In this document: piece after piece, positions 2,220 to 56,620 of the stretch | Layout: each line of letters begins with the position of its first letter | Numbering within the stretch: the stretch's first letter is position 1 | Virus record (IMG/VR): IMGVR_UViG_3300036835_000176 | Span: 1 to 56,620 of that record | Length of the DNA: 56,620 nucleotides | Source of the DNA: a virus | Lineage: Duplodnaviria > Caudoviricetes | Reading direction: 5' to 3' (one strand) | Program-made: the position numbers and the translations under genes | The notes under the pieces: model-generated | Database searches by the model: none | Seen by the model: the letters and a program-made list of their open reading frames with translations, nothing else | Told to the model about the DNA's origin: nothing

Positions 2220-3230
2220 CTACTTGAGGGCAGCGGCGAGCGCTGCGAGGGCCGACGCGCCGCTCTTGGCAGCGGCCAGAATGGCCTGATCGGCGGCCGA
2301 GATCACGCTCGCGCCGAACAGATGGGCATCCGCTGGCGTGATGTGGCCGCGATAGGCCGCGCCAGGCACGCCCGGCACGCTGTCGTAGCCATGCGCGCCA
2401 TCAAGCACCAGCACGCCGCGCTCGCACACGATGCGCCAGGCGTTCGGGATCACGTTGCCTTTGGCGTCCTTGCACGTCTCCTCTAGCGCTAGCGGCAACC
2501 CGAACTCTGAGAAGCCAAAGAGACTGCCGATAGACGGATACTGCCGGTACGCCGTCAGCAGCCCGCCACGAATCAACACGGTGGGCTTATCGTTGCGCGC
2601 CCACCCATCGCCGCTGGCGTGAAAGAAGCCACTCACCTGCGAAAGCTCAAGCATGGTCTGTGTCCCTCCGGTTCCCCCGCTGACGCTCATTGGCCAGCAC
2701 TCGTTGTAGCAAAGCAACTTCTGCCATGTGGCGATCTTGCGGCGATCTGCGAACCCGCCCCACGGATTCATGACCGTCATGTACCCGGCGGGATCGTCGT
2801 CGATCTGATAGACCGCGCCGACGTGGCTAGAGCCGGGATGCATCGGGTCAGCGGGCGGTGTATTCCAGGCGCTCGGCATGGTGATGAGCGTGGGATGGCC
2901 CGCCTTGATCTCTGAGCGAATGGCCGATACCAGCGCCGCTTGACTCGACGCCTTCTGACTCCACAACAGGACGTTCCTGGGCAGGTAGAGCTTGGCGACC
3001 TCTTTGATGTAGTCGCGCGCGGCGGTGCCAGCGTTGGCGTACTTCTCGCCGTACACGTCGTCTTTGAGCCGGTCGCCACTATGCCAGACGCCGGTGAGCC
3101 AGCGACAGGACGCCGCTATCGAGGTCGCCACGCAGTTGTAGCGCTTGTTCTCGCTCACGCCGTCGCGGTCCTCTGCCTCGACGGGTTCTGTGAGCTGGTC
3201 TTGGGCCTTAAATCCTGCGAGTTGCGCCAT
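2220..3230 (-). CDS. Endolysin, C39/papain-like cysteine peptidase domain plus C-terminal putative wall-binding domain
   Basis: NCVATS Cys, GHPTLI, SHVGAV His, MNPWGG; C-terminal FGLPL..E..ERG segment; lysis-cassette position. Confidence 0.7.
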   Translation of the reverse strand: MAQLAGFKAQDQLTEPVEAEDRDGVSENKRYNCVATSIAASCRWLTGVWHSGDRLKDDVYGEKYANAGTAARDYIKEVAKLYLPRNVLLWSQKASSQAALVSAIRSEIKAGHPTLITMPSAWNTPPADPMHPGSSHVGAVYQIDDDPAGYMTVMNPWGGFADRRKIATWQKLLCYNECWPMSVSGGTGGTQTMLELSQVSGFFHASGDGWARNDKPTVLIRGGLLTAYRQYPSIGSLFGFSEFGLPLALEETCKDAKGNVIPNAWRIVCERGVLVLDGAHGYDSVPGVPGAAYRGHITPADAHLFGASVISAADQAILAAAKSGASALAALAAALK

Positions 3231-3652: not shown

Positions 3653-4279
3653 TTACCATATCCGCTGCGGCGCGCCGCCACCGGTCCCGCCCCAATAGAC
3701 GCCAAGCACCGCCGTTGGCGCGCCTGATGAACTCTTGCCGTAGACGCCCTGCACAGGCGTTGGCGAGCCGCTGGAGTCGTTGCCGTATATCTCTTTCGAG
3801 TACTCGGCATAGGCGCTGAGTTGTGCAGTCACCGATCCAGAGGCGAGCGTACCAGGCGCGGTTGGGACATTGGCTGTACTACCTTGCGGGTCAGGATGAA
3901 CCTCGCCGCCTGAGTTGATGTAACTGTAGTTGGCCGTCTGCGCAGGCGTGCGCCAGAAGCCGACGTAGAGGACCTCATTCTCAGCCGCCAGATAGGGCGT
4001 CAGCAGGTCAGCGGCCTGGAAGCTCTGCTGATTGACGCCGGTTCCAGACGCCGCCGAGAAGGTAATCGGGCCAGTCTGCGCGACCACCGCGCGTGAGCTA
4101 TTCCAGAGGACTAGCTGGCCAGTGATCGTGCCGCCGTTGCCCGCCACGTAGACATGAAGGCGGGTAATCAAGCCCGCTTCCGGCATGGTGATCTTCATGC
4201 CTACTTGGTTGTTCGAGCCGGTATTGCTCCTTGATAGGTTATTTCCGCTTGTAGTCGTTCTTCCTACTGTGGAAGTCAT
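3653..4279 (-). CDS. Minor tail protein, beta-sandwich domain
   Basis: G/S/T-rich, beta-rich; end of tail module. Confidence 0.6.
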   Translation of the reverse strand: MTSTVGRTTTSGNNLSRSNTGSNNQVGMKITMPEAGLITRLHVYVAGNGGTITGQLVLWNSSRAVVAQTGPITFSAASGTGVNQQSFQAADLLTPYLAAENEVLYVGFWRTPAQTANYSYINSGGEVHPDPQGSTANVPTAPGTLASGSVTAQLSAYAEYSKEIYGNDSSGSPTPVQGVYGKSSSGAPTAVLGVYWGGTGGGAPQRIW

Positions 4280-4296
4280 GGCGCGCTCCGGCTTGA

Positions 4297-4581
4297 CTAG
4301 CTCAGATGAACGAATATCTCATAGGCGTCGAGCGTGCCTGGCAGCGACGTTCCGACGCTGAGCGTGAAGGCATGGCCGTTGTGCGTGCCGACGACGACGA
4401 CCGCTTTACCGTTCGTCGTGAGCGCTGCCGTGACCTCTACCGCGCCCGTGAACGTCGCGCCAGCAAGATCCGCCTTGGCGTCGTCTACCGCCTCAATGCC
4501 GTCCTCGATGTTGTTGGCGTTGGTATGGGTGAAATTGCCGCCGTTGGTGTACGGACCTTCCGGCGTGAAGTGGTCAGACAT
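4297..4581 (-). CDS. Small tail/fibre protein
   Basis: NANNIEDGIE and KADLAGATFTGAV fibre-like motifs; SD TAGGAGG. Confidence 0.6.
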   Translation of the reverse strand: MSDHFTPEGPYTNGGNFTHTNANNIEDGIEAVDDAKADLAGATFTGAVEVTAALTTNGKAVVVVGTHNGHAFTLSVGTSLPGTLDAYEIFVHLS

Positions 4582-4589
4582 ATGGCCTC

Positions 4590-4973
4590 CTAAGCGAAGG
4601 ATTCTGTAAAGACAACGCCGATTGATTCCTTATCCGTCTTTGAGTGCGAGTACAGCCCACGCCCGATGAGCGTGCCGGTGTCCGCTGTGGCGGTCGCGTC
4701 ATCACCGCCAAACCAACCCACCTCGGCGATAGCGACCCCTACCGCGTCTTGTGGGCTGAGGTAGAGCGTAAAGATAGACTCGCCGGTCGAAACACCGTCA
4801 TCGCCAGCGGTGAGCGCCTTGCGAAAGACCTCAGCGCCGAGCGTCGTATCACTGCTACTCGGTGAGGTGTTATCTGTGCCTACCGCGACATACTTCACAC
4901 GCGCATCAATGAACGAGCGCGCCGCCAGCGCGTAGAGGTCAAGGCCGCCATCAGTTATGGTCACAGTCGCCAT
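4590..4973 (-). CDS. Tail-collar/baseplate-like protein
   Basis: TITDGG..YVAVGT..LGAEVFRK..AEVGWF pattern typical of fibre-attachment proteins. Confidence 0.65.
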   Translation of the reverse strand: MATVTITDGGLDLYALAARSFIDARVKYVAVGTDNTSPSSSDTTLGAEVFRKALTAGDDGVSTGESIFTLYLSPQDAVGVAIAEVGWFGGDDATATADTGTLIGRGLYSHSKTDKESIGVVFTESFA

Positions 4974-10667: not shown

Positions 10668-10676
10668 TGGTAGAGT
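10668..10676 (+). promoter_or_regulatory. Extended -10 promoter (TGGTAGAGT)
   Basis: TGn-TAnnnT just upstream of structured leader. Confidence 0.4.
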
Positions 10677-10682
10677 AGAACT

Positions 10683-10769
10683 GCCGTCTAGGTTGGGAGT
10701 AATTAACCCAACCGAAAAGCCGTTCCCTAGCGGCCTGGCGGCGCACATTCTAGGGACCACCATAGGGAG
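10683..10769 (+). ncRNA. Three-way-junction leader RNA with loop complementary to downstream SD
   Basis: Stems GCCGTC/GGCGGC, GGTTGGG/CCCAACC, GCCG/CGGC; loop TTCCCTAG pairs with CTAGGGA (10750) and TAGGGAG (10763). Confidence 0.55.
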
Positions 10770-10777
10770 TGGCAACC

Positions 10778-11530
10778 GTGGAACCCTCTGCCTCCGCGTG
10801 TCCGTCAGGCATCTATGCCATTACCCACATCGCTAGTGGTAAGTGCTACATCGGCTCCACAAACAACTTTCGTCGGCGCTGGAGCGAGCATCGGGCAGAA
10901 CTGAATCATGGCAAGCATCATAGCAAGCCACTCCAGAACGCTTGGCGCAAATATGGGTCTGCCGCTTTTGCGTTCACCATCCTTGAGTATGTACCCGATC
11001 TTACACTGCTCATAACTCGCGAGCAGTATTACTTAGATACACGGCTCATTGCCAAAGGCAGCAGAGAATACAACGTTCTCTTGGACGCCACAAGCATGCT
11101 CGGACTGAAGCACACCCCAGAGACACGGGCAAAATTAAGCTGGCTCCTCAAAGGTCGAAGCATCACGTGGTCTGATAAATTGCGTGGGCGCGTTGTGTCT
11201 GAGGAAACACGTATCAAATTGAGCGAGAATGCCAAGAAACAAGCGCGCACGCCGGAAAGCAACGCGAAACGTTCTGTTACGCTGAAAGGTCGCCCTAAGA
11301 ATGCGCGCCTTACTGAGTTGGCGCGCGAGACACGACGCAGAAACATTCTCGCAACGCAAACGCCAGAGGCGCGAGCGAAGTCTATGCAGACGCGGCATAG
11401 TCGCCCACCAACTGAGAAACAATTAGCCTATTGGGCACGATTGAGCATTGAAACAACTAGGCGGAATCGCCAAGGAAGGCGCAAACCCTTGCGCGCCACT
11501 CAGCCATTCTTGTGGCCCGATGAGGATTAG
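10778..11530 (+). CDS. GIY-YIG homing endonuclease with NUMOD3-like repeats
   Basis: GIYAITH..CYIGST..RWSEH..EQYY..EYN; HTPETRAKLS and SEETRIKLS repeats. Confidence 0.9.
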   Translation: MEPSASACPSGIYAITHIASGKCYIGSTNNFRRRWSEHRAELNHGKHHSKPLQNAWRKYGSAAFAFTILEYVPDLTLLITREQYYLDTRLIAKGSREYNVLLDATSMLGLKHTPETRAKLSWLLKGRSITWSDKLRGRVVSEETRIKLSENAKKQARTPESNAKRSVTLKGRPKNARLTELARETRRRNILATQTPEARAKSMQTRHSRPPTEKQLAYWARLSIETTRRNRQGRRKPLRATQPFLWPDED

Positions 11531-36187: not shown

Positions 36188-36936
36188 CGTTCCCACTCCT
36201 GAGGCGTTCGTGCGCCCTTCGCGCTGTTGCATGGACGGCATGCGGCGACGAGATTGTCTATCGTTGCCGTGCCGCCCTTTGCGTGCGGGATAACATGGTC
36301 AAGCGACAACGGAACGCCATTTGCGCCGCAATAGCGACATGTGAAGTTGTCGCGCGCATAGATTTTCCAGCGAAGGTCGTCTGGTATCTGCACTCTAAGC
36401 AGAGAGTCGCGCGCTTCCTGTGGGCGCAGTTTTGCGCGCTGATGGTTTCTGGACTCCTCGGCAAATACCTGATTGATTTCAGCGGGGTCAGTTTGCCAGA
36501 CATGGAAACGGAAGTTGATGCCGATATAGCCGCGCGTAGGATTTATCTCATCACCGCGAATGTGGAACGGCATGTACCAGATGATGCGTAACCGCCGCAA
36601 CGTCTCGCGCGCAGCCATGATGGATGTCATGGCCATATCCATCTCGCGCGCCCACGAGGGAAGGTCAAACGTCGCTCCAATGCCGAGGCTCTCTTGTGAC
36701 TGAAGTGCTATTTGATTCAGCAACGAATACAGGTGTTCGGGCCATTCAATGCCGATAAACGCGTCCGTCATCGGCGCGAAGATGTAATCTGCCCATTCTG
36801 CGTAGGCGATCTCTGCGTCATTATCACCGCATTCGGCTACCCAATCTTCATCTGAGCGCCCGCCCACTGGCCGCCTCCATAGAGAAGTGCGGTGACCGAA
36901 CACCCTCTCCATGCCCTCGATCTCCGCATTTGTCAT
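36184..36936 (-). CDS. HNH endonuclease with N-terminal extension
   Basis: IYARDNFTCRYCG..LDHVIPHAKGG..NLVAACRPCNSAKG. Confidence 0.85.
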   Translation of the reverse strand: MTNAEIEGMERVFGHRTSLWRRPVGGRSDEDWVAECGDNDAEIAYAEWADYIFAPMTDAFIGIEWPEHLYSLLNQIALQSQESLGIGATFDLPSWAREMDMAMTSIMAARETLRRLRIIWYMPFHIRGDEINPTRGYIGINFRFHVWQTDPAEINQVFAEESRNHQRAKLRPQEARDSLLRVQIPDDLRWKIYARDNFTCRYCGANGVPLSLDHVIPHAKGGTATIDNLVAACRPCNSAKGARTPQEWER

Positions 36937-40836: not shown

Positions 40837-41153
40837 GGGCGCAACACCCGCTCGATTGACTTGAACATGGATGGGCGCCACACCGCGACGTAGACCGTTG
40901 GCGATGCCTCAAAAGCGTCTAGCCATGCCTGCTGCGCTGCTGTGACCTTGCCCCGTTCCGTCTTGAGTTCGACTACCACTAGCTCGCCATCGCGCGCCAT
41001 CACGAGGTCAGGGAACCCCGGCGCGCTGTGCTTGGAATTGTGAGTATGGTAAACGAGCCACTTGTAGCGCCGCGCCAGGTCAATCACCTGTTGCTGGAAC
41101 TGCTTTTCCGTGATCTGCGCGTCAAGGACCGCGCGCGCCGTCAGCGTGGTCAT
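40833..41153 (-). CDS. VRR-NUC domain nuclease
   Basis: EKQFQQQV..YHT..GFPDLV..ELK..Q.AW..WRP. Confidence 0.85.
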   Translation of the reverse strand: MTTLTARAVLDAQITEKQFQQQVIDLARRYKWLVYHTHNSKHSAPGFPDLVMARDGELVVVELKTERGKVTAAQQAWLDAFEASPTVYVAVWRPSMFKSIERVLRP

Positions 41154-41542
41154 GATGCGTTCCCTAGCCGTATCCAGCTATCATCAACGGACGGAGGCGG
41201 CATCTGCCCCGGTAGTCGGATACCGCGCTTGACGTGAGGCAATAGGACAATCAGGCCACGCTTAGACAGTTGGTTCAGATGCCAGGCCACATGCCCACCT
41301 TCCGCAATGCCCACGCCAGACGCTATCTCGCTTTGATGGGGCGCTAGGCCATCGTGCGAGGCCATGTAGCGCGTGATGTAGCGAAATACATCATCCGGCT
41401 TCACTCGCGCCACCTGTGGCGCCTTCATGCTTCCTTTGATGGAACCACGCGGGCGCGAAGAAACGCCCTTGCCCATCCGCTTACCATCCCGTGTGGAATC
41501 TGCTTGTTTCCCTGTCATACCTTCCGCCTTGCGCTCATCCAT
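41150..41542 (-). CDS. LexA-type winged-HTH regulator without peptidase domain (Cro-like position)
   Basis: VFRYI..G.AP..EIA..V.WHL..L.KRGLI..RGIRL. Confidence 0.7.
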   Translation of the reverse strand: MDERKAEGMTGKQADSTRDGKRMGKGVSSRPRGSIKGSMKAPQVARVKPDDVFRYITRYMASHDGLAPHQSEIASGVGIAEGGHVAWHLNQLSKRGLIVLLPHVKRGIRLPGQMPPPSVDDSWIRLGNAS

Positions 41543-41572: not shown

Positions 41573-41631
41573 ATTTTACCACAAACGGTTCTATAGGTGT
41601 AGTTGTCACAGTTCTATAGGCGTGGTAATAT
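41573..41631. promoter_or_regulatory. Divergent promoters with direct-repeat operators
   Basis: Plus: TTGTCA-17-TAATAT (41603..41631); minus: TGGTAAAAT (41573..41581); repeats GTTCTATAGG at 41588 and 41611. Confidence 0.6.
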
Positions 41632-41716: not shown

Positions 41717-42574
41717 ATGGCCAGCGCGAAACGTACTATGAAGGAGACCATTATCCCGTTTCCCGCACGACCCTCACGGAGCCGCCGGGGTGACATGAGT
41801 AGCGTCCGAAGGAACGGAACAGGGGCGCTTATGAGCAAGCAGCCAAACGAGCATACACAGCACATGGTGAATACCATGCGGTTCTTTAAGGCGCTGTACG
41901 AGCAACGCAAGGAAGAGCGCGGCGATACCTACGATAAAATCGCGGAAGCTGCGACTCTGCTAGCGCAGGGCGATGGATGGGATATCAACATTCCCAAGCC
42001 CTACGTCGCGCGCCTGTGTGGCCAGGGCGATCATTACGTGGTCGAGGCGACCGACTTCTCGTATATGCGCGCCTACTACATCCTGCGCGTGTTCGGCAAG
42101 ACGATGGGCGATCTGGAGCGCGCGATGGAACGCATCAGCGATGAGGCCGTGACAGACGAGCAGTTAGCCGTCAACGCCATACGCCATATCCGCTATCCCG
42201 AAGTGCGGCGCGCCGCGCGCAATCTCGTGGAAGACCTGGCAGGGCTGGACGCTTCGCTGCCACGCCCGCGCACAGCGCCATCCTATCTTGAGCCACTACC
42301 GGGCGCGACACAGGGCGCAAAGCCAGAGCCGCTACCAGCAGATGGCGCGCCGCCCAAGCCTGTCTCTGCTGACCCACTCGGCGATCCGTTGGGCGACATG
42401 GCGGCGCAGAAGTTCGCCGAGGCCGATCAGAGCGAAGCGGAACGCAAGGCGCAAAAGGAAGCCGAGCGCAAAGCCGAGTTAGAGCAGCGCAAGGCGGAAC
42501 TGCGCGACCGTAAGCCGTCAGATAGCGCCAGCGATGACGCGACCGGAACCGAAAGCCCAAACGGCGGCCAGTAG
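41717..42574 (+). CDS. Putative repressor (XRE-like N-terminal helices)
   Basis: RKEERGDTYDKIAE..YVARL; divergent from Cro-like gene. Confidence 0.45.
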   Translation: MASAKRTMKETIIPFPARPSRSRRGDMSSVRRNGTGALMSKQPNEHTQHMVNTMRFFKALYEQRKEERGDTYDKIAEAATLLAQGDGWDINIPKPYVARLCGQGDHYVVEATDFSYMRAYYILRVFGKTMGDLERAMERISDEAVTDEQLAVNAIRHIRYPEVRRAARNLVEDLAGLDASLPRPRTAPSYLEPLPGATQGAKPEPLPADGAPPKPVSADPLGDPLGDMAAQKFAEADQSEAERKAQKEAERKAELEQRKAELRDRKPSDSASDDATGTESPNGGQ

Positions 42575-52180: not shown

Positions 52181-52867
52181 ATGGAAACGAACGAGAACGA
52201 AGGGACACAGCAAGAGATGCCAACGGAACCACAGCCCGCGACCTATCAGGATCGCTGGCAGGACGCGAAGGCCAAATGGACGCAAGCGGCGGCGGCGTGG
52301 CCATTCTCGCGCGCCGCAACGGTTGGTGTGGCGGTAGCGCTACTCATGGTCTGCGTCGTGTGCGCCTGCTGTGGCCAGTTCATGACATCGTTTCATGACC
52401 TCGGCGGCAAGACGAGCGCGCAGAGCCAGCCGACACAGGCGCAATCTGCGAAGGCGACGGCGAAACCAACGCAAGCGCCGAAGGCCGCCGCGACGCCTGA
52501 CCTGTTCACGCCCTACAAGAACATTGTCGTAGCCGACACCACACTGCTCGTGATGGCCATGCAGGATGCGTCAGACTCCTGCGGCGCTGAGGACTTGCCA
52601 GGGTGCCGACGTGACGCGCAGACGGTGAATGAGACCGTTCACGCGTTCCAGTCCGATTTGGACAAGCACCCCGCGCCGCCGTGTCTGAAAGACGCGGATA
52701 AACACCTGCGCGCGGCGCTGAAACTGCTCGATAGCGGCTCACAGAAGGCGGTGGACGGCATAGACGATTTTGACGCCGATGAGATGGGCGACGGCGCACG
52801 CGACCTGAACGCTGGCACGGATGAACTCACCGCCGCGACGGATGCGATGAAGAACGCGAAGTGCTAG
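52181..52867 (+). CDS. Membrane-anchored protein with extracellular helical domain
   Basis: Cys-rich TM helix, P/T/A linker, helical domain with paired Cys. Confidence 0.7.
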   Translation: METNENEGTQQEMPTEPQPATYQDRWQDAKAKWTQAAAAWPFSRAATVGVAVALLMVCVVCACCGQFMTSFHDLGGKTSAQSQPTQAQSAKATAKPTQAPKAAATPDLFTPYKNIVVADTTLLVMAMQDASDSCGAEDLPGCRRDAQTVNETVHAFQSDLDKHPAPPCLKDADKHLRAALKLLDSGSQKAVDGIDDFDADEMGDGARDLNAGTDELTAATDAMKNAKC

Positions 52868-52895
52868 ATTGGGCAGTGGCATCAGGGCTAGAAAC

Positions 52896-52924
52896 TCGCA
52901 ATAATTCAGCGTTTGTGGTATCAT
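52896..52924 (+). promoter_or_regulatory. Promoter TCGCAA-17-TATCAT with TG extension
   Basis: Precedes leader copy 1. Confidence 0.55.
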
Positions 52925-52932
52925 CTAGATAT

Positions 52933-53078
52933 GAGCGGGCGTCCGTCGTACTTGCAATACGACGAGCGCCCTGACCGATTCACTGGTGTTGGCAGTGCAG
53001 CGGCTATACCTTAGTGTACCACGATACCGAGCCAATAGCTGACGTTCGCCAACGCCTCTCAAGGAGGCGTTTTGTGTT
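52933..53078 (+). ncRNA. Structured leader/attenuator, copy 1
   Basis: Hairpin with CTTGCAA loop, CGCCCTGACCGA core, second hairpin, AGTGTAC, then terminator/SD-sequestering hairpin 53051..53071. Confidence 0.6.
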
Positions 53079-53622
53079 GGATGATGTAGAGACCTTTCGC
53101 AAGTGTAAGACATGCGGCGAAGTGAAGCCTATCACTGAATATTCGCGCGGCAAGCCGTTTGCTGGCGGTAGGCGCCCGAACTGCAAAAAGTGTCTAGCGC
53201 GCTATGAGCAGGAAAACAAGGATAGGTGGCGGCGTAATCCCCATAAAGGGAAGCAGCACCGGACACAGATGCAACGTCGGTTTAGCCACGTGCGCAGGTA
53301 TTTCCGCCTATCTCGTGAAGAATATCTGGAAATGATCGAACGACAGGGGAACCGGTGTGCGATCTGCGGTGCGCCACCACCGGAAGGTAAATTTCTAGAC
53401 GTAGACCACGATCACGCCACCGGGCGCATAAGGGCTTTGTTGTGCGGTAGGTGCAACACATGTCTAGGATGGGCAAACGACAATCCGCAGGTTCTAAGGG
53501 CGGCTGCGGATTACCTTGAGGCGCACGCTAGTAATATCAGTCCGGTGCTGGCCCATGAACCGCACAGCACTCTCTGGGGGCTGCGTTGGTGTGGTATGCT
53601 ATCAACGCCTGCCAACGTGTAG
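53074..53622 (+). CDS. Endonuclease VII-family homing endonuclease
   Basis: CKTC..CKKC; Q.NRCAICG..VDHDHATGRIRALLCGRCN..LG...DN..AADYL; SD AAGGAGG before GTG 53074. Confidence 0.9.
   Translation: MLDDVETFRKCKTCGEVKPITEYSRGKPFAGGRRPNCKKCLARYEQENKDRWRRNPHKGKQHRTQMQRRFSHVRRYFRLSREEYLEMIERQGNRCAICGAPPPEGKFLDVDHDHATGRIRALLCGRCNTCLGWANDNPQVLRAAADYLEAHASNISPVLAHEPHSTLWGLRWCGMLSTPANV
53592..53600 (+). promoter_or_regulatory. Extended -10 promoter TGGTATGCT
   Basis: Precedes leader copy 2. Confidence 0.5.
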
Positions 53623-53629
53623 GTTGGTT

Positions 53630-53777
53630 GTGCGGACGGACGGCCTGCTGGTAACAGGACGCCCGCCCTGACCGAGGCACGCCGTAAACATGCCCCGGCT
53701 GCGAGCCAGTGTACTACACACCGGCAAGCAAAGCGTGTATGCGGCGTGTCTCTTTACTGAGGCGCGCCGCTTTTTTG
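53630..53777 (+). ncRNA. Structured leader/attenuator, copy 2
   Basis: Hairpin with CTGGTAA loop, CGCCCTGACCGA core, second hairpin, AGTGTAC, then terminator. Confidence 0.6.
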
Positions 53778-53778
53778 T
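53741..53778 (+). terminator. Intrinsic terminator (attenuator) upstream of secreted-protein gene
   Basis: GCGGCGTGTCTC/GAGGCGCGCCGC stem plus TTTTTT. Confidence 0.8.
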
Positions 53779-53857
53779 TGCGCGTTCGCCTAAGGCGTAG
53801 AAAGGCAGGTATCCGCGCTTCCCTTTGCTGTGCCGTAAACACACGAAAGGAAACATC

Positions 53858-54343
53858 ATGTTTTCGCGTTGGCGCGCCGTCCTGGTAGCGGTCGCGCTCA
53901 CCCTCACCCTTGCGGCCTTGCCCGCTCCCGCCGCGATGGCGGCTCCGAAATCTGTACAGCCGCATGTTGTCGAATGTAGCGCGTATCGCACCGTCGCTGC
54001 GACGGGCTGGATACAGAACGACTATCTGGAAGAGGCGCAGGTTCGCATCGAGCGCCTCTACACACCTGGCGGCGCTGATTGCAATAGCTGGCGCGCTGCT
54101 GTTCAGTACGATAATTACGCGCCGTATAGCCAGACGATGAACACTTATGTATACCTGCACAGGAACGGCTACGGCTCGTTCTATGGCGCGCATTGCGGGC
54201 CAACGACCTTCCCGCCCTACACCGGAACCACCTGCCGTACGACCTGGGTAGACCTGCACGCCATTCAAGCGGGATGTGGCATCTGGCAGGCGGAAAGCAT
54301 TAACGAGGTCGGCCATCTCTACTCGCCATCGGCGTGTGTGTAG
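53858..54343 (+). CDS. Secreted Cys-containing protein (moron)
   Basis: Signal peptide ending AMA-A; six Cys; SD GAAAGG. Confidence 0.7.
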   Translation: MFSRWRAVLVAVALTLTLAALPAPAAMAAPKSVQPHVVECSAYRTVAATGWIQNDYLEEAQVRIERLYTPGGADCNSWRAAVQYDNYAPYSQTMNTYVYLHRNGYGSFYGAHCGPTTFPPYTGTTCRTTWVDLHAIQAGCGIWQAESINEVGHLYSPSACV

Positions 54344-54364: not shown

Positions 54365-54400
54365 AAAAGAGCGCCCCTGGATCAACTCCAGGGGCTTGTT
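54365..54400. terminator. Bidirectional terminator
   Basis: GCCCCTGGA/TCCAGGGGC stem between convergent genes; resembles the one at 1612. Confidence 0.7.
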
Positions 54401-54431: not shown

Positions 54432-55421
54432 CTAACCAGCGGCTTCACTCGCGCCTTGATCGTCGCTTTGCTGGCGGCTATACACCTTGTCAGCCCACCC
54501 CTTCGCAGTGAGATTGTTCGCGTAATAGGGCTTGCCAACCAGCGACATAATCTGCTGATTACCTCCGAGTGAACGGACCATATTCCCGGCAGTAATGTCG
54601 TCCAATACCCGGTCATAAGCCCATGCGACATACGCCTGTAAATCCGCTGCTGTCCACTGCTTTGCCGTCTTCTTCCCCGGCACTCTACTCGCGCTAAACT
54701 TGGCGGGTTTCTCCGAAGTAGACGGCGCGTTTACCTCCAAGTGAACAGGCGTTCCGCTTTCGGCCAGTGTCTCGTCTTTCTTGCCAGTAAAGCCAGCCTT
54801 AAGCGCGCGGCCAGCAGCGCCTATTCCGCCAGCATCCACCTCACGCATCGCCGCCTTATGCCGCTTCTCAGATAGCTCTTTGGCGTGTCGTGCCTCGCGC
54901 TCTTGTTCGGTCTCTACCACCTGTGGACGCGCAGACCAACCATAGAACAGAATCAGTGAAGCATGCAGGAAAGCGACAAAGACAACGCTGATAGGAACGA
55001 CGCGGAAGATTGGGATACCGGTCGTATCTGCCAGCCATTCATCCGCTGGTGTTGGGCGCGCTTGCCGTGACCGTTCCGCGACGCCAGCCCAGATGTCAAA
55101 GCTGACTAAGAGCAGGACGCCAAACATGCCAAACGCGCCCTTTATCCACTTGCCAGCGCCGAATGAATCAGCCATTGTCGCGGATAAGCCGAGTGCGATA
55201 CCAGCGGCGGCAAGACCCAATAGGATAGCCACGACGAAGTTGAGCCAGTCATACCATGCCCACGACTGCCAGCCCGCCGGATCACCGACCGAGACCATGA
55301 GAATCATGAGCGTGGTGACGATCCACTGCGCGGCCAGTAAGCCGGACAATGCCGCGTGGCGCTGTATCCAGCTAAACCACGCCGGATGAACGTGCTGCTG
55401 TTGTGGCTGGTTAGCGCTCAT
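54432..55421 (-). CDS. Four-TM membrane protein with cytoplasmic C-terminal domain
   Basis: Four hydrophobic helices; SD GGAGGGGG. Confidence 0.7.
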   Translation of the reverse strand: MSANQPQQQHVHPAWFSWIQRHAALSGLLAAQWIVTTLMILMVSVGDPAGWQSWAWYDWLNFVVAILLGLAAAGIALGLSATMADSFGAGKWIKGAFGMFGVLLLVSFDIWAGVAERSRQARPTPADEWLADTTGIPIFRVVPISVVFVAFLHASLILFYGWSARPQVVETEQEREARHAKELSEKRHKAAMREVDAGGIGAAGRALKAGFTGKKDETLAESGTPVHLEVNAPSTSEKPAKFSASRVPGKKTAKQWTAADLQAYVAWAYDRVLDDITAGNMVRSLGGNQQIMSLVGKPYYANNLTAKGWADKVYSRQQSDDQGASEAAG

Positions 55422-55728
55422 GCAGATACGCCCCCTCCAGCACGTCCTTGTGCTGGCGCTCCCACTCACCCGGCGTCAGGCGGAACTCTTGATCGCCACG
55501 CGCGCAGTACCCTTCCGTGTCCCTGAAGTGGTTCAACTCCAGCACCGGTACCGGGCTGCTGACTGGCCAGTAGATACTGATGACCAGCCCGTTGTAGATG
55601 GCGCAGACGAGCGCGTGATGCGCGTCGGCGCTCAGGCGTGCGCGCCAGCCCTCAGCGGCGCTCAGTAGTTCGTTGCGGAGCGCGAGTTCTTCAGGCGACA
55701 GCTCGCGCATTGGTGGCAGAACGGACAT
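55411..55728 (-). CDS. Hypothetical protein
   Basis: SD GAAAGGA. Confidence 0.6.
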   Translation of the reverse strand: MSVLPPMRELSPEELALRNELLSAAEGWRARLSADAHHALVCAIYNGLVISIYWPVSSPVPVLELNHFRDTEGYCARGDQEFRLTPGEWERQHKDVLEGAYLHER

Positions 55729-55834
55729 GCTGGCGTTTCCTTTCAGGTGATATAGGCGGCTGTTTCAATCTCTGGTTAGTATATCGCCTAATCACCCATA
55801 ATGGCAACGCGCTAGACACGTATGTACCGCTATG

Positions 55835-55872
55835 TGGTATAATTTGCATAGTCATTTGCGCGATGCTAGACT
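55835..55872 (+). promoter_or_regulatory. Tandem promoters TGGTATAAT and TTGCAT-17-TAGACT
   Basis: Consensus matches upstream of HTH genes. Confidence 0.6.
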
Positions 55873-55891
55873 GCCAGAAGGGAGAATGCGT

Positions 55892-56137
55892 ATGCAAGTC
55901 TGGAGTGAGGTAGAGGTGATGCAGACGTTACGGCAAGCGCGCGAAAAAGCAGGGCTGACGCGGGAGCAATTGGCGCAGAAAACGAACGGGCTGGTTACTT
56001 CCGGCACGATCTATCGCATTGAACGAGATAAGTCATCAGCGCTGCCTGCGGTGCGCGTCGCGCTGGCGCAAGCCTTAGGCGTAGCGGTATCCGCAATCGA
56101 ATGGCCTGCGAAGGAGCGCGATAGCGCTAGCGAGTGA
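55892..56137 (+). CDS. XRE/Cro-like HTH regulator
   Basis: LRQAREKAGLTREQLA..TIYRIER..LAQALGV. Confidence 0.88.
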   Translation: MQVWSEVEVMQTLRQAREKAGLTREQLAQKTNGLVTSGTIYRIERDKSSALPAVRVALAQALGVAVSAIEWPAKERDSASE

Positions 56138-56147
56138 GGTACGGGCG

Positions 56148-56366
56148 ATGCAGGCTCTAGCTGTGAGACCGCGCCCGCTTTCCGCTTTGCGCCTTGATAG
56201 CGGGCTGACGCAAGAGGAATTGGCATACCGTTCAGGCGTGCGCCTTAGCACGGTATGGCGTATCGAGCGCGCGAGGGTCGCGCCGTGGCCCAAGACACGG
56301 GCGAAGATTGCAGCGGCGCTAGGAGTGGACATCGCGGCGGTAGAGTGGCCGTCTAGGGAGGGGTGA
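56148..56366 (+). CDS. XRE/Cro-like HTH regulator (paralogue)
   Basis: LRLDSGLTQEELAYRSGV..TVWRIER..IAAALGV. Confidence 0.88.
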   Translation: MQALAVRPRPLSALRLDSGLTQEELAYRSGVRLSTVWRIERARVAPWPKTRAKIAAALGVDIAAVEWPSREG

Positions 56367-56369
56367 GGC

Positions 56370-56620
56370 GTGAGTAATCCAGAGGAGCATATCAGCGGCA
56401 TTTACGCAATCCGCAACGCTACAACAGGGCGCGTCTATATTGGCAAGGCAACCAATATCGCAGTGCGCTGGATGGCTCACAGACGCCAATTGGCAAAAGG
56501 CGATCATATCAATAACGCGCTCCAAGAGGACTGGGACCGTTATGGCAAGGAGGCCTTTGAGTTCAGCATCCTTGAACGCGTTGAAGGAAACCGCGCGCTC
56601 AGTGAGGCAGAGGCGCGTCA
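56370..56620 (+). CDS. GIY-YIG nuclease, N-terminal part (continues at position 14)
   Basis: GTG start; SGIYAIRN..VYIGKA..RW.AH..LQEDW..YG..AFEFSILE. Confidence 0.88.
   Translation, partial: MSNPEEHISGIYAIRNATTGRVYIGKATNIAVRWMAHRRQLAKGDHINNALQEDWDRYGKEAFEFSILERVEGNRALSEAEAR

Follow-up and report, generated by a model that had tools for sequence, protein, structure and literature searches.

For a phage, carrying free-standing homing endonucleases and recombinases is hazardous and, to our knowledge, little is known about the restraint of such genes outside T4-like phages. The T4-type homing endonuclease genes I-TevI, mobE and segB are described as having a hairpin that hides the Shine-Dalgarno (SD) sequence, with read-through transcripts left untranslated (PMC3014915). 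In a review (PMC12197685), the P22 sar RNA (68/69 nt) is listed as blocking ant translation, and the cyanophage S-PM2 CfrI RNA (approximately 225 nt) as lying between psbA and a homing endonuclease gene. In SymR/SymE of E. coli, and alike in RalA/RalR of the rac prophage, a nuclease-like toxin gene has a cis-antisense RNA across its 5' end. For RnaG/icsA of Shigella, convergent promoters 120 bp apart are reported to interfere directly and RnaG to pair with the nascent leader, which leads to formation of an intrinsic terminator, a mode of action for which the same report names pT181, pIP501 and pAMβ1 (PMC2879508). Here we compare these systems with a repeated element of approximately 90 nt in the soil virus record IMGVR_UViG_3300036835_000176 of IMG/VR (complete as given, 56,620 bases, completeness estimate 70%; the whole of this stretch is referred to below as the window), where it precedes an Endonuclease VII (EndoVII) gene and a gene for a putative secreted protein.

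The two copies lie at 52933-53026 (copy 1, c1) and 53630-53721 (copy 2, c2) and have a core identity of 79%. We regard it as moderately probable that each is a small minus-strand gene for a cis-encoded antisense RNA, which faces the sense promoter and restrains the gene downstream. A first-pass annotation of the same DNA had interpreted the copies as twin attenuators built on a sense-strand scaffold, with a reprogrammable specificity loop and, as a side remark, a possible counter-transcript. The sequence facts on which it relied are all present, but only part of them stand above chance, and its interpretation is supported in part. The shared scaffold belongs to the part that stands: the composite pattern CCCTGACCGA..CGGCT..AGTGTAC occurs twice in the window and in none of 100 shuffles, and an exact 12-mer of the scaffold is found nowhere in the window except in the two copies. 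Searched over the window, a covariance model built from these copies (R1) returned only them, at 106 and 102 bits, the next-best matches (24 bits) being the reverse strand of the same hairpins. No extra copies were detected in the window with R1 and R2, and it holds exactly two.

Five further members of the family were identified, one in a metagenome contig (L115) and four in IMG/VR contigs (L150, L173, L196 and L214). Their R1 scores range from 24.4 to 40.3 bits, compared with a maximum of 16.0 bits among approximately 190 chance pattern matches scored with the same model.

L115: 24.4 bits; resolvase (PF00239) downstream.
L150: 40.3 bits; small open reading frame (ORF) and tyrosine integrase downstream, beside a tRNA.
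L173: 35.1 bits; phrog_681 endonuclease downstream.
L196: 25.6 bits; phrog_681 endonuclease downstream.
L214: 26.7 bits; HNH_3 endonuclease downstream.

Four of the seven members are followed by free-standing endonuclease genes of three families (EndoVII, HNH_3 and, twice, phrog_681), two by recombinase genes (a resolvase and an integrase module) and one, copy 2, by the secreted-protein gene. L173 and L196 are related to each other, and L115 shares the apical part of hairpin 1 with copy 2, which no pattern required.

The key step in these searches was to treat the third block of the scaffold as a promoter box on the opposite strand, with its middle bases freed. L150 was found with the pattern TGGTANNNT-N6-7-AGCCG-N15-40-CGGTCAGGG, and L173, L214 and L196 with CCCTGACCGA-N15-40-CGGCT-N6-7-ANNNTA, which returned 71 stretches; the pattern that yielded L115 demanded all three blocks. 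In IMG/VR, the three-block pattern produced 112 stretches that were judged by eye, 100 of them also scored with R1 (L103-L114 excluded) to a maximum of 14.7 bits, and further scans of IMG/VR gave 16 stretches (maximum 15.1 bits) and 6 stretches without a match. Species genome contigs contributed 4 stretches (16.0 and 13.1 bits or lower) and metagenomes another 4, of which only L115 was convincing; the metagenome stretch L117 reads like coding sequence. Across 401 Pseudomonadota genomes, the L173-type pattern matched twice, against three matches for its backwards control. With blastn, the region and the single elements gave no match, or a 22-nt chance match in Ralstonia megaplasmids, against phages and plasmids; no related loci were reached in IMG/VR through the secreted protein or EndoVII, and no such element was seen by eye upstream of L147 and L148, relatives of the L115 resolvase. 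When searched whole with R1 and R2, each of the other four virus records proved to contain a single copy. Known families do not account for the element either. At gathering score, Rfam 15 yielded only int-alpA (at 10681) over the whole window; at E values up to 10, only P31 (23.7 vs 40 bits) and sR17 over 52700-54000; and at E values up to 1, no match at the elements in the five relatives' loci.

Some observations on individual copies and relatives may be recorded here. A 151-nt low-depth contig from the same soil sample (run X1) matches 52967-53005, where copy 1 has its junction and hairpin 2, showing 3 differences, and may represent a further copy or a variant phage. The public sequencing runs holding the region are two soil-metagenome DNA runs; no RNA run was found among them. 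In the L150 record, a tRNA gene (2617-2691, minus strand, 61 bits) lies beside the tyrosine integrase (3665-4762, minus strand) downstream of the element, and the record looks like an element integrated at a tRNA site. In L214 (582-4562), the HNH_3 gene and its putative antisense module lie in reverse orientation between the large terminase and portal genes, a classic place for a free-standing homing endonuclease.

Covariation in the family supports a conserved two-hairpin structure. When the segment spanning hairpins 1 and 2 is folded in isolation, it adopts the same two-hairpin shape in all seven members. In the seven-row alignment A7, which was fitted to the model and includes two pairs of related rows, 88.1% of cells are paired, compared with 68.9 ± 2.6% in shuffles, and compensatory changes occur in 12 of the 20 pairs. 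Its covariation score is 0.443, against 0.135 when shuffled (0/500) and 0.02-0.08 with slid partners. Hairpin 1 is of equal length in both copies of the window and contains compensatory changes, as the first-pass annotation had noted; its view of a real, repeated, covarying element at the RNA level is upheld, and the element has no Rfam match.

The two strands differ in the stability of this fold. On the minus strand, z scores lie between -2.6 and -5.4 in all seven members, and in six of them the minus-strand fold is more stable than its plus-strand counterpart by 6.5 to 20 kcal/mol, an asymmetry reached by 0-3 of every 300 shuffles of the same composition; in copy 1 the two strands tie. For c2 and L115, the plus-strand folds fall within the range of shuffles (259/500 and 243/500). 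Minimum free energies (MFE, in kcal/mol) on the plus and minus strands were as follows.

c1: plus -31.6, minus -30.2.
c2: plus -22.3, minus -42.4.
L115: plus -23.1, minus -42.6.
L150: plus -34.5, minus -44.0.
L173: plus -33.9, minus -46.9.
L214: plus -25.5, minus -32.0.
L196: plus -22.5, minus -35.8.

For copy 1, the minus-strand value of -30.2 kcal/mol corresponds to a z score of -3.6 (0/300 shuffles), and for copy 2 the z score is -5.4, with 7 G·U pairs and the strand asymmetry matched in 0/300 shuffles. The minus strand gains its extra stability because internal loops and A·C mismatches of the plus strand become G·U pairs on it. The MFE folds contain 31 G·U pairs on the minus strand and 5 on the plus strand; in the 20 R1 pairs alone, the minus strand has 11 G·U pairs and 8 non-pairs, the plus strand 3 and 16. 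In L115, three consecutive wobbles within a 15-bp helix take the place of a 3×3 plus-strand internal loop. Strand asymmetry and G·U pattern therefore indicate that the conserved fold belongs to a minus-strand RNA, and less likely to single-stranded DNA.

These results bear directly on the interpretation of the element as a cis-regulatory leader on the sense strand, whose hairpins would sense a metabolite or a protein and choose between antiterminator and terminator, or hide the SD. Such a leader would be in keeping with the two-hairpin shape that the scaffold alone gives on the plus strand in all seven members, with the position of each copy between a promoter and a hairpin or terminator, and with the textbook antiterminator/terminator pair that overlaps hairpin 2 in copy 2; a binding site for a ligand or protein would also be consistent with the invariant blocks and the conserved single-stranded junction. 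We nevertheless consider it unlikely. Covariation of a riboswitch or protein-binding leader should fit the sense strand best, whereas the wobble pattern favours the minus strand: the plus-strand folds are the weaker ones in six of seven members by the margins given above, those of c2 and L115 do not stand out from shuffles, and the plus-strand internal loops are exactly the positions that turn into G·U pairs on the minus strand. In L214, only 3 nt separate a perfect TATAAT, the sense -10, from hairpin 1, too short a distance for the sense RNA to include the entire hairpin. Expression platforms vary among members (terminator, SD hairpin or none), and an Rfam family match is absent. The conserved scaffold as a sense-strand leader fold, as proposed in the first-pass annotation, is thus not supported.

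The same asymmetry weighs against a processive antiterminator RNA of the put type, in which a nascent two-hairpin RNA renders the polymerase resistant to terminators. The window does show the arrangement described for putL and putR of phage HK022 (PMC9378689), with two similar copies of approximately 67 nt per phage, each forming two stem-loops after a promoter and before a terminator-like hairpin, and RNA antiterminators are described from other mobile elements too (PMC8191782, PMC11658703). A put element would call for a two-stem fold of the nascent sense RNA, yet it is the antisense strand that is favoured, the sense fold being weaker in six of seven members. Hairpin 2 of copy 2 is consumed by a 19-bp antiterminator that a put element does not need, no terminator follows the element in L115, L173, L196 or L214, and each of the four other virus records has a single copy. 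We consider this explanation very improbable.

The layout of both loci in the window, on the reading as antisense genes, is given below (sRNA, small RNA; SL, stem-loop; sRNA starts are those proposed).

52914-52924, plus strand: sense promoter 1, extended -10 TGTGGTATCAT, identified from the sequence, with a presumed start near 52931.
52937-53005, minus strand: putative antisense sRNA 1, 69 nt to the end of SL2; +1 would be the A opposite T53005.
53003-52975, 52974-52972 and 52971-52937, minus strand: SL1, linker UCA and SL2 of sRNA 1.
53013-53022, minus strand: putative antisense promoter 1, GTGGTACACT, followed by a 7-nt spacer and AGCCG.
53051-53071, plus strand: predicted SD hairpin (AAGGAGG at 53061-53067), then TTTTGTGTT; terminator-like, with a weak T tract.
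53074-53622, plus strand: Endonuclease VII family gene, 182 aa, GTG start (Pfam PF02945, E 3.1e-23; phrog_2633, E 1.4e-35).
53590-53600, plus strand: sense promoter 2, extended -10 TGTGGTATGCT, with a presumed start near 53607.
53612-53627, plus strand: small extra hairpin CCAAC/GUUGG, found only in the 5' part of leader 2 (alignment gap, fold).
53634-53700, minus strand: putative antisense sRNA 2, 67 nt; +1 would lie opposite T53700.
53698-53672, 53671-53669 and 53668-53634, minus strand: SL1, linker and SL2 of sRNA 2.
53708-53716, minus strand: putative antisense promoter 2, TAGTACACT, followed by a 7-nt spacer and AGCCG.
53674-53752, plus strand: predicted long-range antiterminator helix of leader 2, pairing 53674-53693 with 53733-53752.
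53741-53776, plus strand: strong predicted intrinsic terminator of leader 2, a 12-bp stem (9 G-C pairs) at 53741-53770, then T6.
53832-53841, plus strand: second copy of GCCGTAAACA (the first is at 53681-53690), immediately upstream of the SD of the following gene.
53858-54343, plus strand: 161-aa ORF with a signal-peptide-like N-terminus; 'secreted' rests on a reading of its sequence.

The assignment of 53074-53622 as an endonuclease gene, based on its domain and family matches, is sound. Pfam and PHROG returned no match for the 161-aa ORF. Sense promoter 2 falls within the last codons of the EndoVII ORF, and the extended -10 boxes that had been reported before both copies are present (TGGTATCAT at 52916-52924 and TGGTATGCT at 53592-53600).

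The third block of the scaffold appears to fit a promoter on the minus strand better than a conserved RNA sequence. GTGGTANNNT, the extended -10 motif GTGGTAnnnT, is present 9 times in the window, where 2.4 ± 1.4 occurrences would be expected (0/100 shuffles), and TGGTANNNT 20 times, against 9.9 ± 2.9. Among the matches are a divergent pair at 41.5 kb, the boxes preceding the int-alpA RNA and a helix-turn-helix (HTH) gene at 55.8 kb, the two sense promoters and GTGGTACACT, which lies at 53022-53013 on the minus strand and corresponds to the conserved block AGTGTACCAC of the first-pass annotation on the opposite strand. A TANNNT hexamer precedes AGCCG, the complement of CGGCT, by 6-7 nt in all seven members, and the base before AGCCG is C in six of them (T in c1), placing CA at the putative -1/+1. 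In L150 the sequence of the block differs, yet it reads TGTGGTATGAT on the antisense strand, the form taken by the sense promoters of the window. AGTGTA reads as TACACT on the minus strand, as had been pointed out before; in copy 1 TGG precedes it. The counter-transcript of the pT181/pIP501 style that was suggested to start from this box, a side remark at the time, has become the best-supported reading.

The promoter-like block also has to be set against a DNA-level role, in which the hairpins would form in single-stranded or cruciform DNA and serve the mobility or targeting of the adjacent nuclease or recombinase gene, as a recombination or nicking site or a homing-site mimic. Endonuclease VII enzymes, such as T4 gp49, cut branched DNA, genes for nucleases, a resolvase and an integrase, drawn from unrelated families, accompany the element, and G·T wobbles are tolerated in DNA hairpins, so that strand asymmetry alone is no proof of RNA. 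We judge this role distinctly unlikely: the conserved 3' block matches the phage promoter motif and is spaced from a CA start as a promoter would be, the cargo of copy 2 is a putative secreted-protein gene, the sense helices of copy 2 contain their own G·U pairs and are meaningful only in RNA, and neither flanking target duplications nor inverted terminal repeats were seen on reading the loci.

In the antisense interpretation, an RNA of approximately 67-70 nt would start at the A of AGCCG, 6-7 nt after the extended -10-like box (at 53005 in copy 1 and 53700 in copy 2), and the distance from there to the end of SL2 would be 66-79 nt. It would comprise, in order, the variable SL1, the linker, which is conserved (CGG-UCA-GGG), and SL2, which is long and rich in G+C. 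SL2 would end within a few bases of the sense start, and the two promoters would converge over about 75-95 bp. The sense leader would be the mirror image of the antisense RNA, which would pair with the nascent leader and repress the downstream gene, and collision of the converging polymerases may add to the repression. That the RNA is produced, where it ends and that it represses are points that we infer.

Minus-strand hairpins could also be made as RNA to no regulatory end, as a terminator or insulator for stray antisense transcription or, in the divergent loci L173 and L214, as the 5' leader of a neighbouring structural gene. SL2, a G+C-rich hairpin with a long stem of 13-16 bp, does stand immediately ahead of the sense promoter, and a gene on the antisense strand begins 40-85 nt past SL2 in L214 and L173. 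In five of the seven members, however, the next gene on the SL2 side is sense-oriented, and a non-regulatory RNA leaves unexplained both the promoter-like box with AGCCG directly before SL1 and the exact match of the covered stretch to the antiterminator strand of copy 2, which together make it a doubtful explanation and one to which we give little weight.

The way in which an antisense RNA might act depends on its position relative to the downstream gene. In L173, L196 and L214, the SD (AAGGAG, AGGAG and AAGG) lies within the complement of SL1 and an in-frame GTG directly follows CGGCT; the antisense RNA would thus cover the whole 5' untranslated region, SD included, and end one base before the GTG. 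In c1, c2, L115 and L150, the start codon is located 45-158 nt beyond the antisense +1, and any effect must therefore be relayed; in the window copies, the putative RNA stops short of the SD by 69 and 158 nt.

For copy 2, folding of the leader predicts such a relay. Its antiterminator helix comprises 19 bp (13 + 6), with 2 G·U pairs in the MFE fold and a duplex energy of -34.7 kcal/mol (1/2000 shuffles), and the 3' strand of this helix is the 5' arm of the terminator. The pair probability of the terminator stem rises from 0.08 in the free leader to 0.999 when 53634-53701 is unavailable. The stretch that the antisense RNA would cover at 53674-53693 is the 5' strand of the antiterminator, and pairing would let the terminator at 53741-53776 form. 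The antiterminator/terminator alternative put forward in the first-pass annotation is hence genuine for copy 2, and mutually exclusive folds in which the covered stretch is the antiterminator strand were predicted there but not in copy 1 or L115.

At copy 1, the downstream hairpin at 53051-53071 does contain the EndoVII SD (AAGGAGG, 53061-53067), as had been claimed, and the SD of the endonuclease gene is predicted to be paired in it (mean unpaired probability 0.32). This hairpin is predicted in both states of the antisense-covered stretch, blocked and free (values of 0.75 and 0.89 in the two), and would act as a constitutive SD-sequestering hairpin before the EndoVII gene. The resolvase gene of L115 likewise has an SD-hiding hairpin upstream that is predicted in both states. 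In both loci, an antisense contribution could come from promoter interference, RNA decay or a 7-nt loop match to the start codon. The description as twin attenuators consequently holds for copy 2 and fails for copy 1, and the complementarity of hairpin 2 to its own terminator arm, significant in copy 2, is marginal in copy 1 (-24.9 kcal/mol; 100/2000 shuffles), where hairpin 2 is unspecific, pairing nearly as strongly with the downstream arm of an unrelated member (-22.5 kcal/mol). Nor is this loop-to-terminator complementarity a family trait, as it is not significant in L115 (371/2000 shuffles), and no attenuator was found in the three relatives whose SD and GTG lie inside or adjoin the antisense-covered stretch.

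Three further candidates were rejected. The loop words do recur exactly at the initiation region of the next gene, GTGTTGG from the hairpin 2 loop at the EndoVII start (53074-53080) and GCCGTAAACA, the longest shared word, at 53832, but the energies of the corresponding duplexes are within those of shuffles. Shared words of 7, 10 and 5 nt gave duplexes matched by 1437, 246 and 1795 of 2000 shuffles, the second value being that of GCCGTAAACA, and a second SL1 target at the initiation region was discarded. A leader peptide ending at the conserved CCC-TGA was discarded as well: in copy 2 a 13-codon GTG ORF (53630-53671, plus strand) ends in Arg-Pro-Pro-stop exactly at CCC-TGA, but the frame is not kept in copy 1, where in-frame starts occur only upstream of the putative transcription start, or in L115, which has no in-frame start codon. 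ARAGORN found no tRNA-like element.

Several observations weigh against the antisense interpretation. Copy 1 has no strand preference, and copy 1 and L115 show no predicted change in SD pairing upon antisense binding. Single-stranded DNA, too, accommodates G·T wobbles. The invariance of the CCCTGACCGA and CGGCT blocks is unexplained by antisense pairing alone, an invariance that is in part circular, every scan having demanded both. Likewise, an ANNNTA (or TGGTA) box at set spacing was demanded by the patterns that found L150, L173, L196 and L214, and AGTGTAC by that which found L115, so that independent promoter support comes from c1 and c2 and partly from L115 and L150 only. Copy 2, the clearest attenuator, keeps the -10 hexamer of its antisense promoter and has lost the TG of the extended -10 (TAG for TGG), and a -35 element is not conserved. 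A canonical U tract is absent after SL2: U occupies 25 of 84 tail positions, against a background of 18% (P = 0.006), and 0 of 12 in copy 2, an excess that is confounded by the A+T-rich sense -10 located there and was not used as support.

Considered as a whole, the first-pass annotation named the right pieces, counter-transcript included, but assigned the conserved fold to the wrong strand and generalised the attenuator beyond copy 2. Its reprogrammable specificity loop is trivial, since a cis-encoded antisense RNA always complements its own locus. A broader view, which we offer tentatively and as a possibility only, is that the element is a portable cassette of convergent promoters and a two-hairpin antisense RNA of approximately 70 nt, moving with selfish genes for DNA cutting and joining among unrelated soil phages and capable of being rewired from occlusion of the ribosome-binding site (RBS) to terminator control. 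In such a cassette, the invariant linker and SL2 would dock a conserved factor of host or phage origin, SL1 would automatically be specific for whichever gene follows, and rewiring, as at copy 2, could bring new cargo such as a secreted moron protein under control.

The surroundings of the element read as those of a temperate tailed phage, judging from gene content. The minus strand carries a large serine recombinase and the terminase, portal, protease, major head protein and tape measure genes, and the plus strand Erf, a methyltransferase and small early genes. Among the portals of cultured phages, even the best match, that of Geobacillus phage GBK2, shares no more than 33-35% identity with the portal encoded here. 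A second structured RNA of the phage, int-alpA (Rfam RF02996), is located at 10681-10755 on the plus strand (40.9 bits vs a gathering score of 35.8), directly 3' of the extended -10 box TGGTAGAGT (10668-10676) and 5' of ORF 10769-11530. The divergent GTGGTAnnnT boxes (41573-41582, minus strand; 41622-41631, plus strand) are situated between ORF 41150-41542 (minus strand) and ORF 41717-42574 (plus strand), and this intergenic region is probably where the early or lysogeny switch of the phage is located. Two small HTH genes (55832-56137 and 56148-56366), with a TGGTATAAT box at 55835, are followed by a GIY-YIG nuclease ORF (56370-56618) that runs past the window end; no copy of the antisense element precedes this second free-standing nuclease gene of the window. 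A weak second match to the Endonuclease_7 family (36211-36393, minus strand; 18.4 bits vs a cut-off of 23.6) lies within a 272-aa open frame. A perfect 9-bp hairpin at 54373-54395, with T-rich flanks on both strands, separates the convergent genes 53858-54343 (plus strand) and 54432-55469 (minus strand) and looks like a bidirectional terminator.

In comparison with described systems, the loci that resemble SymR/SymE most are L173, L196 and L214, where the antisense RNA would overlap the SD and end one base short of the GTG, a coverage geometry like that of SymR (PMC4147584). This overlap is absent in c1, c2, L115 and L150, the antisense RNA of the two window copies not reaching the SD. SymR/SymE has no sequence or Rfam relation to the element and targets SOS-induced chromosomal toxins, whereas the element precedes free-standing endonuclease and recombinase genes of phages. 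Copy 2 follows in silico the same logic as that described for pT181, pIP501, pAMβ1 and RnaG (PMC2879508). The targets of those systems are plasmid replication genes or a virulence gene, and RnaG is 450 nt long, compared with approximately 70 nt for the putative phage RNA; a further difference is that other members of the element family have no terminator. The sar and CfrI RNAs are phage-encoded antisense RNAs as well, CfrI being tied to a homing endonuclease gene in the review cited above (PMC12197685), but they share neither structural nor sequence similarity with the element, nor an Rfam match.

The hairpin at 53051-53071 and that of the L115 resolvase would, in the folding model, do the same as the RBS hairpins of T4-type homing endonuclease genes. 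The latter are described as acting without antisense RNA and as being relieved through a late promoter inside the hairpin (PMC3014915); such a promoter was not seen here. The likeness to HK022 putL and putR consists in two copies per phage of approximately 70 nt, with two stem-loops and placed after promoters (PMC9378689); put acts as nascent sense RNA, in contrast to the element, whose fold is favoured on the antisense strand.

A non-exhaustive literature search did not find a published description of the family. The element is most likely a small, rare family of convergent-promoter antisense modules located before selfish nuclease and recombinase genes of soil phages. If so, it would constitute an undescribed antisense RNA family that restrains such genes as a self-contained module, with one scaffold put to two uses, direct RBS occlusion and antisense-triggered termination; the seven loci provide a concrete, testable set, with the strand for structure searches now corrected. 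Set beside the systems above, cis-antisense control and countertranscript attenuation are of a textbook kind and involve no new principle, while the family itself is new to Rfam 15.

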